Shown here in pieces: positions 5,379-22,303 of a stretch of 64,000 nt of DNA (position 1 is the first letter of the stretch; every line of letters starts with the position of its first letter). The notes below the pieces were generated by a model. The model ran no database searches, was not told the origin of the DNA, and saw nothing but the letters and a program-made list of their open reading frames with translations. The position numbers were made by a program, and so were the translations under genes. Source of the DNA: a virus; IMG/VR virus record IMGVR_UViG_3300002835_000068, positions 1 through 64,000 of that record; one strand, written 5' to 3'.

Positions 5379-7976
5379 ATGGCTGCTGAATTTATTGATG
5401 ACACGGTAGATGGCTCTGGGTTGTACCCAACCAAGATACCTGGCTATGAAGATGCAGCCGATATTCAGGAAGCATTAAGACTTTATCATTATGGATCAAG
5501 TGTTATCCCAACAACAAGTGATTTAAATGGAACAGCAACAAGCATAAATACAAAATCAGTTGCAGGGCATCTAAAATCCCTGTCTAATACAATTGCAACA
5601 GAGGTAACTAATAGAACGACTGCTGATACAAACCTTCAAAACCAAATAGACGGTCTTTCAAGCACACTTGCTGCCCAAACAGGGGTAGTTACAAAAACCA
5701 CAAACTTTATGCTGTCTCTTGAAGAAGTATCAAAGACAATTCTTTTATCAACATCAACAAATATGAATCTTACTATACCATTAAACTCATCTGTAGCCAT
5801 TCCAGTAGGTTCTAGATATAACCTAATTGAAATGGGATCAGGAGTAACAACTTTTGTACCAGCATCAGGTGTAACAATTAACAGCAAAAATGGACAAATG
5901 TTTATTGATGAACAATATGGACAAGTAACTTTACTAAAAGTTGCAGAAAATTCTTGGGTTGCTTATGGAGATATTTACGAAGGTTCAAATGAACAAACAT
6001 TCTTTAACGTAACATATAATTGTGGCTTTGCAACAAACTGTCCTCCAAATACAACTCACACTGGTTCATACACAATACCTTCAACTACTCCAACACCTGG
6101 AGAAGGAATGGGTGGATTCTTTGGGTATTATGTTCAGTCAGATGCAAACTGTTCAATTCCAACTCAATACCCTAATTACTCTGCAGGACAAACAATTGCA
6201 TGTAATGGTAACCTAACAATAACAGCAGTCTTTGCTGATCCCCCAGCCGTGACACCACCTGTTACTCCAGCAGTAACACCTGCTGTAACACCAGCAGTAA
6301 CCCCAGCAGTAACCCCAGCAGTAACACCTGCTGTAACACCAGCAGTAACACCAGAAGTTACTCCAGCAGTTACTCCAGGAGTCACTCCTGTTACCCCTGT
6401 TACTCCAGTAACACCAGTAACACCAGTAACACCTGTTACCCCTGTTACACCCGTAACACCTGTAACTCCACCAGTTACACCAGTGACACCACCAGTTACA
6501 CCGTCAAACTGTAATGAAGATTGGAGTCTAATTCCACAGTCACAGTGTGAAGAGTGTGGTTTAGTTTGGGCTCCAGAGTTTGGTGAATGTATTTCTACTG
6601 TAACTCCTGTAACTCCTGTAACACCAGTTAACTGTGATCCAGACTGGAGTTTAATTCCTCAGTCACAATGTGAAGCCTGTGGATTAGTGTGGGCACCAGA
6701 GTTTGGTGAATGTATTTCTACCGTAACACCTGTTACACCCGTTACTCCTGTTACTCCCGTAGATTGTAATGAAGACTGGAGTTTGATTCCTCAATCACAG
6801 TGTGCTGCTTGTGGTTTAGTTTGGAGTGCAGAGTTTGGAGAATGTATTGAGATTCCAGTTACACCAGCAGTTACTCCAGTTACACCTGTAACACCAGTAA
6901 CTCCTGTAACACCAGTTACCCCTGTAACACCAGCAGTTACACCACCTGTAACACCAGTTACACCTGTAACACCTGTAACTCCAGTAGATTGTTCAGACAC
7001 AAGTTTGCTTAATTCAAGTCAGTGCGCTGCATGTGGTTTAGTATGGAGTCCAACCTTTGGTGAATGTGTCGAGCCATCTGTAACTCCACCAGTAACTCCA
7101 GTTACACCTGTAACACCAGTAACTCCTGTAACACCAGTTACCCCTGTAACACCAGTAACTCCTGTAACACCAGTTACCCCTGTAACACCAGCAGTTACAC
7201 CACCAGTTACACCACCAGTAACTCCACCAGTAACTCCACCAGTTACACCACCAGTAACTCCACCAGTAACTCCACCAGTAACCCCTAGCGATCCAACATG
7301 CGCTGATTTTGGAGAGTTAGGAACTTGGCCTAACTGTTATCCACCTGGAGAAAACCCTACAGTAACTCCAGCAGTAACCCCAGAAGTAACCCCAGGGGTA
7401 ACACCTGGAGTAACGCCTGGAGTAACGCCTGAAGTAACCCCATCAGTAACACCTGGAGGATTCAGTTTTACTCCAGTGTTTATGAGATCTCTAGCGCCTA
7501 TGACTAAGGTTAGAATGGCAGACGGATCTTTGAAGGATGCAGAAGATATTTATGTAGGAGATGTGCTTATGTCCGTAGAACTTCCAGGATTTGCAGACTC
7601 TTATACAACAGAAGAACTAATGTCTTGGGTATCAACTCAAAACATAACCGAACTACCTTTGACAACTACGACTGTCAATAAAGTAGAAGTTTATCCTTCT
7701 GCACAGGTTATATCTGTAAATGAAGACGTATTTTCTCCAAACCACTTAATCTTAATTAAGAGAGATCAAGAAATATCAATGAAGAAAACATCAGATCTTC
7801 TAATAACAGACTTAGTTTGGGACCTTGAATCAGCGGGATGGAAAGAAATAACACTATTAGAAATACACGATTACAACCACACAGTTATCACCATAAATTG
7901 TGAACCAAATGACTTATTCTTTACACAAGGTGCTTTGACACATGATGGAAATCAATCACAACCTATTCAAGAATAG
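5379..7976 (+). CDS. Fibre-like virion protein with (VTP)n tract, four Cys modules and C-terminal Hint domain
   Basis: Fibre-type N-terminus, divergent B-repeat, Pro/Thr repeats, Hint blocks [13 protein letters not shown] / SPNH / [11 protein letters not shown]. Confidence 0.85.
6249..7454 (+). repeat. Coding tandem repeats [11 protein letters not shown] with four CxnCxxCx10C modules (6510-6590, 6633-6713, 6765-6845, 6990-7067)
   Basis: Direct reading of translation; DNA repeats vary at synonymous positions. Confidence 0.95.
7488..7946 (+). other. Hint (hedgehog/intein) domain copy 1, 153 aa
   Basis: Block [14 protein letters not shown], block B SPNH, blocks [15 protein letters not shown]...LTHD. 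Confidence 0.85.
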
Positions 7977-7991
7977 TGTATAATTTTATAT

Positions 7992-8237
7992 ATGACAAGT
8001 CGTATAGAAAAAATAAAAGAAATAATTGAAGCCAATAAAGCATCAGCAGTAGGCCCATTAGACATATTAAATCCAAATACAGAGTGGGTAGACGATGATT
8101 TATATAATGAAAGGTATTCCTTATGCCTATCTTGTCCAGAATTAATAAATTTAACAAAACAGTGTAAAAAATGTGGCTGTTTTATGACGGTAAAGAGTAA
8201 GATGAAGATAGCAACATGTCCGCTAGGAAAATGGTAA
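7992..8237 (+). CDS. Six-Cys small protein (DUF6171-like); paralog of 1056-1262
   Basis: CLSC...QCKKCGCFMTVK...TCPLGKW; TATAAT 7 nt upstream (leaderless). Confidence 0.8.
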   Translation: MTSRIEKIKEIIEANKASAVGPLDILNPNTEWVDDDLYNERYSLCLSCPELINLTKQCKKCGCFMTVKSKMKIATCPLGKW

Positions 8238-21193: not shown

Positions 21194-21801
21194 TGAAAAT
21201 AGTTAAAGGGTTTATAGAAAAATCAGATTTAGACATAGTTCAAGAGTATATTAAAAATATAAAATTTCATACAAGGGAAGACCATGTACCATTGCACGAT
21301 AATTTATTTGACAACGATGGTACAAAGTTTGACATACATACTCGTGGAGAAATGCCAGACAATGTTTTAGATGTTTTTTCAAAGTACTCTAGATCCTACT
21401 ACGATATAGTTCAATCCGAAAATGAAGATTTATATCATCCACCAATGTTTTCTAAGCACTACATAGCAAGATATAGAAGTGGCGCATTTGCAGAGCCACA
21501 CAACAATGAAAAGACAAAGCCAGAAGGAACCTACTATTCTTTTATTGTTTGGCAAAATGCAGAAGATGGAGGAGACTTTATCTTCCCTGAGTTAGATAAA
21601 TCTTTTAAGCCAGAGCCTGGAGATCTTGTCTATTTTAAAGAAAAGTTTGAAAATAACCATGGTATAACAAAAATAATTTCTGGAGATCTATTCTTGTCAG
21701 AAGCCTGGATGGGTAAAAGAGGTCAACACTGGATGGAAAATAAAGCATCCTATGAAGAAGTTGACTGGGAAAACTGGGAAATAAAGGGTTTTTATGAATG
21801 A
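21193..21801 (+). CDS. 2OG-Fe(II) oxygenase-fold protein with degenerate motifs
   Basis: ARY...HNN in place of HxD, GGDFIFP, HGI, no 2OG-binding Arg. Confidence 0.7.
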   Translation: MKIVKGFIEKSDLDIVQEYIKNIKFHTREDHVPLHDNLFDNDGTKFDIHTRGEMPDNVLDVFSKYSRSYYDIVQSENEDLYHPPMFSKHYIARYRSGAFAEPHNNEKTKPEGTYYSFIVWQNAEDGGDFIFPELDKSFKPEPGDLVYFKEKFENNHGITKIISGDLFLSEAWMGKRGQHWMENKASYEEVDWENWEIKGFYE

Positions 21802-22303
21802 CCAAATAAAAGTTATAAGAGGGTTCATGGACCCAGAAGATGCGATGCTTGTTTCAGACTATGCCAGGTCTGTCGATTCCTCTTTTACTGAGTTTGGTAA
21901 TGGTGAAAAAGAGTTTACATTTCATGCAAAATTTGAAGACTCAGATATTCAAAGCCTTTTAAATTTTTATGGACAACTTTCTTTGAAGTTTGTAAGAGAT
22001 AACTACGTGGGCCCATTCCAAGATTATGATAGCACCAAAACCCATATTGCTAGATTTAGTCAAGGGGATGGAATGCACGAACATTTTGATTCCACAAAGC
22101 CTAATGACATAGCAACTTTAATATATTTAAACAATGATTATGTAGGGGGAGAAATATACTTCCCAGACTATGACGTACACATTAAGCCTGATGCTGGAGA
22201 TCTTGTGTGTTTCCCAGATACTCCAGATTTTGTCCATGGTGTTAAGCCAATAACTGAGGGTATCAGATATACGGCACCACGATGGTTCACACGCATAGTG
22301 TGA
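21794..22303 (+). CDS. Prolyl 4-hydroxylase-like 2OG-Fe(II) oxygenase
   Basis: HFD, YLNNDYVGGEIYFP, HGVKPITEGIRY. Confidence 0.85.
   Translation: MNDQIKVIRGFMDPEDAMLVSDYARSVDSSFTEFGNGEKEFTFHAKFEDSDIQSLLNFYGQLSLKFVRDNYVGPFQDYDSTKTHIARFSQGDGMHEHFDSTKPNDIATLIYLNNDYVGGEIYFPDYDVHIKPDAGDLVCFPDTPDFVHGVKPITEGIRYTAPRWFTRIV

Follow-up and report, generated by a model that had tools for sequence, protein, structure and literature searches.

Hint-capped repeat proteins and oxygenase-fold neighbours: a candidate module for tailoring phage adhesins

The first 64 kb (64,000 nucleotides, called the window from here on) of the 103-kb IMG/VR virus record IMGVR_UViG_3300002835_000068, which comes from an uncultured lake phage and is ~93% complete, encode two proteins, P0001 and P0002, that are built alike: a structural part is followed by a tract of short peptide repeats, a linker, and a C-terminal Hint domain resembling those of bacterial intein-like (BIL) proteins. 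In distant phages, genes for such repeat-Hint proteins are again followed by genes for proteins with the fold of 2-oxoglutarate (2OG) oxygenases, and the genomic comparisons given below support the linkage of repeat, Hint domain, and oxygenase as a conserved phage module as opposed to a chance neighbourhood. As to what this module does, we put somewhat better than even chances on a reading in which the adjacent oxygenase-fold proteins modify the repeat of an adhesin or fibre protein whose Hint cap removes itself. No description of such a module was found in the open-access literature.

A preliminary description of this region had claimed the common architecture of P0001 and P0002, including a GFSFTPxFMx linker in front of the Hint domain, and both open reading frames (ORFs) are as it described them:

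5379-7976, + strand: P0001, 865 amino acids, with a fibre-type N-terminus, (V/A)TP repeats, the linker, and a Hint domain
7488-7946, + strand: Hint/BIL-type domain of P0001, from Ser704 (the predicted nucleophile) to His855-Asp856, then Gly at +1 and a 9-residue tail
16574-18178, + strand: P0002, 534 amino acids, with FN3 repeats, an FSPFG tract (~17456-17689), the linker SGFSFTPRFMA, and a Hint domain
17690-18148, + strand: Hint/BIL-type domain of P0002, from Ser373 to His524-Asp525, then Gly at +1 and a 9-residue tail

The linker common to both, GFSFTP(V/R)FM(R/A)-S, stands directly before a C-terminal domain of 167 residues that is 73% identical between the two proteins (BLASTP 3e-85); their N-terminal parts are unrelated, and these are the only two copies of the Hint domain in the 103-kb genome. 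The N-terminal domain of P0001 matches the C-terminal parts of minor tail, tail fibre, and virion structural proteins in PHROG (E 1e-9 to 6e-11), and its (V/A)TP repeats are broken up by four to five Cys-containing modules (nucleotides ~6243-7460); in P0002, the FN3 repeats are recognized by Pfam (1.3e-9). Both repeat tracts are regular at the peptide level and imperfect at the DNA level (71-91% matches). Repeat copy number differs between near-identical homologues (P0013 versus P0014, P0019 versus P0020), and the middle of the fibre varies among sister phages, with a PASTA domain in the P0001 orthologue of one of them (L005). PASTA domains in relatives are consistent with a Gram-positive-type host.

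The shared C-terminal domain has only a sub-threshold match in Pfam, to Hom_end_hint. Compared with the PDB, a profile of 55 family members finds the BIL of Clostridium thermocellum (2LWY, 9e-12), BIL2 of Tetrahymena (6Y75, 3.5e-10), and many inteins. An AlphaFold2 (AF2) model of the domain, with a predicted local distance difference test score (pLDDT) of 90.3, has 55 Foldseek matches at E<=1e-3, and the top ones listed, including BIL2, the Ssp DnaB intein, 2LWY (TMt 0.82), and hedgehog 1AT0, are all intein, BIL, or hedgehog structures. Judged from profile and model together, the domain is a genuine Hint fold of the BIL kind, as the preliminary description had recognized, with catalytic residues retained across the family. 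A scan of 1.84 billion cluster representatives yielded 214 relatives at E<=1e-3, nearly all of which have the domain at their very end; from Ser1 to the last residue of the protein, the median length is 157 residues. Among 204 aligned sequences, the first Hint residue is Ser in 122, Cys in 53, and Gly in 2 (Ser or Cys in 175/177), and the [ST]xxH motif of block B, which reads SPNH in the window copies, retains [ST] in 201/203 and His in 198/203. The last core residue is Asp in 126 sequences and Asn in 69; the penultimate one is His in 152, Tyr in 24, and Phe in 17. The two ends of the domain are paired, Ser1 going with Asp and Cys1 with Asn (86 S/HD, 49 C/HN, and a single S/HN). Because equivalent nucleophiles swap at fixed positions, as in an active site, we infer that the domain is catalytically competent. 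Ser occupies the +1 position in 80 of 191 family members and Gly in both window copies, which by their residues are of an unusual Ser1 / His-Asp / Gly+1 type, and the residue at -1 varies (Lys in 73, Gly in 21, Tyr in 15, and others).

Several other identities for the domain were considered and rejected. Since the window copies combine Ser1, His-Asp, and Gly+1 with a tail of just 9 residues, canonical splicing and a hedgehog-type adduct region are both excluded: an intein is further ruled out by the same domain ending two unrelated proteins, and no adduct-recognition region of the kind used in hedgehog-type sterol transfer exists beyond the Hint core. A Peptidase S74 intramolecular chaperone has no S74 match in Pfam, and the fold is that of Hint. 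Apart from their Asp terminus, the window copies fit BIL-type cleavage as defined in PMC4031507.

What precedes the domain is recurrently of low complexity: just upstream of Ser1, sequence entropy falls below 3.0 bits in 76 of 168 family members versus 7 of 150 control segments. Further toward the N-terminus, the family carries FN3, PASTA, or fibre-tip domains, and many members consist of PASTA domains, a repeat, and the Hint domain only. Departures from the usual layout include a protein of 1108 amino acids (P0046) with two Hint domains in tandem, and several giant ORFs of 1373-2789 amino acids (loci L100, L110, and L122) in which the Hint domain is internal, not C-terminal.

The linkage to oxygenase-fold genes was followed in loci fetched from IMG/VR with sub-alignments of the Hint family. 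Set 1, the Ser1/Asp Hint clade, comprises 80 loci in 41 clusters at 80% identity; set 2, the Cys1/His-Asn type, comprises 43 C-terminal Hint ORFs, of which 38 loci in 27 clusters have usable flanks. Of the co-occurrence that the preliminary description had proposed to check, the part concerning 2OG-oxygenase-fold and DUF6171 genes holds downstream of the Hint gene across divergent phages. The family of P0006, the gene next to P0002 in the window, is found at +1 to +4 of the Hint gene in 40/41 set 1 clusters. PF13640-like oxygenases are downstream in 25/41, the family of the window's second such gene (2OGb) at +1 to +6, and a DUF6171 cluster is downstream in 20/41, the count for DUF6171 overall lying at about 13-20. 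The six-Cys domain is present in 14 of the 27 members of the DUF6171 cluster, the window's own included, and in the alignment none of these 14 has lost any of the six Cys. A family of 180-residue proteins ('plus1') follows the Hint gene in 21/41 clusters and is absent from this genome; neither Pfam nor a PDB profile gave it an identity. Another cassette family, fam5, is related to DUF6065 (hhalign 96.7%), and the remaining cassette families are unrelated by sequence. A Pfam tally over the 120 nearest downstream genes counts 14 PF13640 and 11 DUF6171 genes.

Placement is one-sided. In set 1, the cassette families sit at +1 to +10, mostly at +1 to +6, and just 3 cases occur among ~300 upstream genes. 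The upstream contexts of the Hint genes are of at least six different kinds, so the cassette has not simply travelled as one inherited block. An MtdN-type fibre gene stands at -1 in 22/41 clusters, and this constant location in tail-fibre blocks bears on whether the products belong to the virion at all. Repeat peptides or sticky, gel-forming tails freed by the Hint domain in the manner of ribosomally synthesized and post-translationally modified peptides, or cell-wall-binding factors in lysis or superinfection exclusion, would suit the short tandem units, which vary in copy number between near-identical homologues, and the PASTA domains, which bind cell wall. With the N-terminus of P0001 matching tail and structural PHROGs, the genes sitting among fibre genes, and no peptidase or export genes present, we consider such non-virion products very improbable.

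Set 2 separates two associations. Downstream of the genes for its repeat proteins (PPYDN, PPVYDN, FFPP, PTT, TQN, or a Pro/Tyr-rich tract) lie PF13640-like, DUF6171, and DUF6065-like genes, and 15 of its 18 proteins without a repeat have no cassette (odds ratio 6.25). P0006 homologues are absent from its 27 Cys1/His-Asn clusters, and for this reason it is the Ser1/Asp type of Hint domain that P0006 goes with, whereas the remaining enzymes go with the repeats. The Cys1...His-Asn type also occurs in the collagen-repeat protein of Dickeya jumbo phage vB_DsoM_AD1 (gp108; L089 4002-5441), whose Hint domain, a distant homologue, has Thr at +1 and a 10-residue tail, the same being true of related Erwinia pEa_SNUABM phages. 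The gp108 protein is annotated as a 'virion structural protein', on a basis not traceable to proteomics, and this annotation also counts against a non-virion product; AD1 and the Erwinia phages provide a culturable entry point.

In the window, P0002 is followed by these genes:

18234-18932, + strand: P0006, 232 amino acids, 2OG-oxygenase/double-stranded beta-helix fold (AF2 pLDDT 81 and Foldseek)
18932-19069, + strand: DUF1660 Cys/His mini-protein, 45 amino acids (Pfam 1.4e-4)
19160-21193: class II (B12-type) ribonucleotide reductase (RNR), lying between P0006/DUF1660 and two prolyl 4-hydroxylase (P4H)-like genes
21169-21801, + strand: 2OGa, P4H-like 2OG-Fe(II) oxygenase (PF13640 23.9 bits, below the cut-off; same local family as 2OGb)
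21794-22303, + strand: 2OGb, P4H-like 2OG-Fe(II) oxygenase (PF13640 44.4 bits versus a cut-off of 27; H97-x-D99, H148)

The P0006 model matches 2RG4/3BVC and the prolyl hydroxylases PhyA (6T8M) and PPHD (4IW3) in Foldseek, and P0006 has no sequence-family match in Pfam and none by profile in PDB sequences. No DUF1660 homologue was found near distant Hint genes, and no evidence ties DUF1660 to the module. The longest frame of 2OGa, starting at a TTG at 21169, overlaps the end of the RNR gene by 25 nucleotides.

Phages syntenic with the window share the gene order tf, orf14499, MtdN, Hint protein, ..., RNR, ..., large ORF, portal, and among them the enzyme set co-varies with the repeat type. Where the repeats are FSPFG (the window, L003/L004, L079, and L085), the RNR gene is followed by 2OGa and 2OGb. 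Where they are the Pro-free GFYHGF/GHGYGG (L076, L077, L082, and L087), both of these oxygenase genes are missing, and the stretch from the Hint gene to P0006 contains fam8 and two DUF6065-like genes. In the latter phages, the gene at +5, after P0006, encodes a protein of 113 amino acids with a near-threshold MGT5A-like N-terminal domain (E 6.5e-6). One record of the Pro-free type contains collagen-like genes and one Hint gene with no PF13640 gene in 48 kb, which weakens the alternative that the P4H-like pair has a collagen substrate.

Three genes follow P0001:

7992-8237, + strand: DUF6171 six-Cys mini-protein, 81 amino acids (Pfam PF19668, 5.3e-8, 33.6 bits versus a cut-off of 27)
8216-8929, + strand: GT2-like glycosyltransferase, 237 amino acids (PHROG 3047, 2e-10; Atlas 0.99 to GT2 clusters; no Pfam match)
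8926-10527, + strand: GT61 (Pfam PF04577; residues ~50-290) fused to a JmjC_2-like cupin (residues 344-533, nucleotides ~9955-10527)

The GT61, GT2-like, and JmjC_2-like identities are reasonable. The GT61 half scores 8e-16 in Pfam (58.9 bits versus a cut-off of 27) and is weakly similar to POMGNT2; the other half has JmjC_2 as its nearest Atlas clusters (structural template modelling score 0.76), ribosomal-protein hydroxylases among them, with HRD...H visible, and in Pfam matches Cupin_2 only (E 1.2e-3, below the cut-off). Four sister phages (L003, L005, L006, and L007) have the fibre-Hint gene and DUF6171, followed by a P4H-like oxygenase of 201 amino acids (PF13640, 9.7e-17) and a stand-alone JmjC-like gene whose product, of 194 amino acids, shares 86% identity with residues 344-533 of the window fusion. 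Missing from these four are the GT2 gene and the GT61 half (8216-9955 in the window), which are present only in L008, a phage near-identical to the window. With one enzyme set swapped for another at the same site beside the fibre, the slot holds exchangeable enzymes, an arrangement that fits tailoring.

The glycosyltransferases fare less well as a general part of the module, which the preliminary description had taken them to be. No homologue of GT2, GT61, or the JmjC/cupin lies beside the distant Hint genes of the 41 and 27 clusters, which weighs against this part of the scheme and leaves the proposed co-occurrence unsupported for these three families. Because the glycosyltransferases are absent from distant loci and replaced in sister phages, glycosylation would be at most a lineage-specific option outside the conserved module, and even for P0001 in this phage we rate it as less likely than not. 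A second gene of the DUF6171 six-Cys type lies at 1059-1274 on the - strand (local hidden Markov model E 8e-22), far from both Hint genes and adjoining an unannotated ORF of 256 amino acids at 1253-2023 (-). At 61408-63428 (+) lie three tandem paralogous ORFs of 216, 206, and 279 amino acids; they are matched by long proteins of the DUF6171 cluster, encoded downstream of Hint genes in other phages, over the N-terminal, non-Cys part of the latter.

The neighbours that the preliminary description had listed after P0001 and P0002 are thus in place, as are its two further P4H-type genes (PF13640 at 21169-22303) and its collagen-repeat genes (matches at 2931-4135):

2931-3386, + strand: collagen-like gene (sub-threshold Pfam collagen match)
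3407-4135, + strand: collagen-like gene (Pfam collagen match above the cut-off)

The collagen-like genes are part of the context, and their products a rival substrate for the P4H-like enzymes.

From these genomic data we infer cleavage, hydroxylation, presence in the virion, and possible glycosylation, in the following order of events. Adhesin- or fibre-type proteins of the tail-fibre block, with FN3, PASTA, or fibre-tip domains, carry a low-complexity repeat capped by the BIL-like Hint domain. At its Ser1, which is Ser704 in P0001 and Ser373 in P0002, the Hint domain would most likely undergo an N-to-O acyl shift and then remove itself through hydrolysis or transfer of the resulting ester, so that the repeat would become the new C-terminus of the mature protein. 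Before or during this removal, the downstream proteins of the 2OG-oxygenase fold would most likely act on the repeat by hydroxylation. The P0006 family accompanies the Ser1/Asp Hint clade, and P4H-like PF13640 enzymes are added when the repeat has Pro; DUF6065-like proteins go with other repeat types, and DUF6171 is often found with them. In this lineage, one of the two substrates has also gained GT2 and GT61-JmjC, which may glycosylate its Thr/Pro repeats.

A number of observations weigh against this mechanism or limit its reach. The Pro-containing repeats claimed in the preliminary description hold for the window proteins but not as a general trait, since 33 of 168 family members have less than 5% Pro upstream of the Hint domain. 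Conversely, 12 loci with Pro-containing repeats have no PF13640 gene within +7, and roughly one in three PF13640-like cassette genes has lost the HxD...H motif. The association of repeat and cassette in set 2 is no more than suggestive (Fisher p = 0.07), and the co-variation among syntenic relatives is limited by their kinship, the Pro-free phages being a single clade and hence about one evolutionary event. Adjacency is not strict: in the window, the RNR gene separates 2OGa and 2OGb from P0002, and more DUF6065-like and 2OG genes lie 55 kb away in the same genome, outside the window, with two DUF6065-like genes at genome positions 75309-76822, then two PF13640-like oxygenases at 77687-79052, and a further oxygenase at 91720-92457 (-), all of families that directly follow the Hint gene in other phages. 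Small genes after fibre genes are, moreover, often assembly chaperones.

Some of these observations would be expected if the Hint domain were a mere self-removing assembly cap, comparable in role to the intramolecular chaperones that end phage fibres, and the neighbouring oxygenases and glycosyltransferases served collagen-like fibres, host proteins, nucleotides, or cell-wall glycans, the fibre region being a hot spot for accessory genes. Cassette genes lying far from Hint genes in the same genome, collagen-like genes sharing the block both in the window and at many loci, and an enzyme slot swapped between sister phages would all follow, and the P4H-family enzymes among the structural matches of P0006 include ones with the non-repeat substrates EF-Tu (4IW3) and Skp1 (6T8M). 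A hot spot does not readily explain why the cassette is placed on one side, immediately downstream, in at least six genomic contexts, why it accompanies repeat-bearing and not repeat-less Hint proteins, or why the Pro-free relative has collagen-like genes yet no PF13640 gene, and we consider this explanation unlikely.

P0006 itself complicates the hydroxylation of repeats in another way. The window copy keeps WHDH...HPH, whereas most family members have WYD...GNK at these positions and have lost the metal-binding residues, so that metal-dependent catalysis is improbable for the family as a whole. With equal likelihood, P0006 could be a hydroxylase or have a role as adaptor, chaperone, or acceptor linked to the Ser1/Asp Hint domain. 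An acceptor is what a conjugation mechanism would call for: instead of being hydrolysed, the Ser1 ester could react with an amine or hydroxyl group on a second protein, perhaps P0006 or a virion component, tethering the adhesin covalently through the C-terminus of its repeat, much as BIL domains treat the ubiquitin-like domain in Tetrahymena BUBL loci. This would be an enzyme-free, ubiquitin-like ligation in phage assembly, with the oxygenase-fold partners as modifiers, adaptors, or acceptor. BIL2 of BUBL1 is indeed the best structural and second-best sequence match of the Hint domain; proteins consisting of PASTA, repeat, and Hint would be left with no evident virion anchor after simple cleavage; and P0006, mostly non-catalytic, is present with the Ser1/Asp Hint domain (40/41) whatever the repeat type and absent from the Cys1/His-Asn loci. 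The proposal is purely inferential, however, with no acceptor identified and a variable residue at -1, and in type A BILs the products of cleavage predominate (PMC4031507). We regard conjugation as improbable, and modification of the repeat followed by self-removal of the Hint cap as the preferred reading.

Elsewhere, the window encodes an HK97-type portal, protease, and capsid module (26.4-30.6 kb) and several Mtd_N-type tail-fibre genes in addition to the class II RNR and collagen-like genes. No DNA-level relative of the region was found among cultured phages by megablast, and comparing P0002 and P0006 with these phages by tblastn brought no useful match. Very large ORFs lie at 35585-44935, 45558-49868, 56655-59975, and 22319-26026 (3116, 1436, 1106, and 1235 amino acids, respectively); the last has no Pfam match and directly follows the RNR/2OG block in all syntenic relatives.

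Genes for 2OG-Fe(II) oxygenases are among the commonest unexplained "auxiliary" genes of aquatic phages. The module offers these orphan enzymes a candidate substrate, namely the repeat of the Hint-capped protein encoded immediately upstream, and it points to a chemical tailoring of phage adhesins (hydroxylation, with glycosylation in some lineages) that could affect host recognition, stickiness, or stability. A large phage Hint clade with the unusual Ser1/Asp pair may also be of interest to protein-ligation chemistry.

Elements of the proposed module have counterparts in known systems. Work by Freeman and colleagues in 2023 is said to have found that C-terminal extensions of mycobacteriophage capsid and tail-tube proteins are O-glycosylated by phage-encoded glycosyltransferases. 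Likenesses to that case are an actinobacterial-type phage, glycosyltransferase genes beside structural genes, and Ser/Thr-rich extensions as likely acceptors; here, in contrast, a (V/A)TP repeat of fibre type would be the acceptor, and the candidate glycosyltransferases are GT2-like and GT61-JmjC. Chlorovirus PBCV-1 encodes both a prolyl 4-hydroxylase and Pro-rich tandem repeats as its presumed substrate. The phage genomes resemble it in that a P4H-family enzyme and Pro-containing tandem repeats are both virus-encoded, and differ in that PBCV-1, a virus of eukaryotes, lacks both a Hint cap and a conserved linkage of the operon kind, while the phage module has several oxygenase-fold families and some Pro-free repeats.

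For the Hint domain, the comparison is with three kinds of protein. Hedgehog/Hog (1AT0), a structural match, likewise has a C-terminal Hint domain; that of hedgehog cleaves at its N-terminal edge, and the product ahead of it is released or modified. The phage domain differs in having no sterol-recognition region, a Ser in place of the Cys nucleophile, and a retained terminal Asp/Asn. BIL2 of Tetrahymena thermophila BUBL1 (6Y75 / 6TMM), the top Foldseek match (E 4.6e-9, TMt 0.74) and second-best by profile, is a BIL that serves the processing or conjugation of a flanking domain and is not a selfish intein; it is, however, eukaryotic, has Cys1/Asn, and flanks a ubiquitin-like domain, which the phage proteins do not have. 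The type A BIL of C. thermocellum (2LWY), the best match by profile, shares the Hint fold, an N-terminal nucleophile, the TxxH of block B, and the absence of an endonuclease, and like the window copies has no +1 nucleophile; type A BILs are also housed in variable, non-conserved proteins of surface type, and cleavage is expected to dominate in them (PMC4031507). Compared with these, the phage domain has Ser1 for Cys1 and His-Asp for His-Asn, and Thr/Ser and Asp in place of the block F Asp and His. Its core of ~155 residues stands almost always at the very end of the protein, followed by a tail of only 3-10 residues, and it is phage-encoded, with a peptide repeat in front of it and genes for oxygenase-fold proteins linked to its own.

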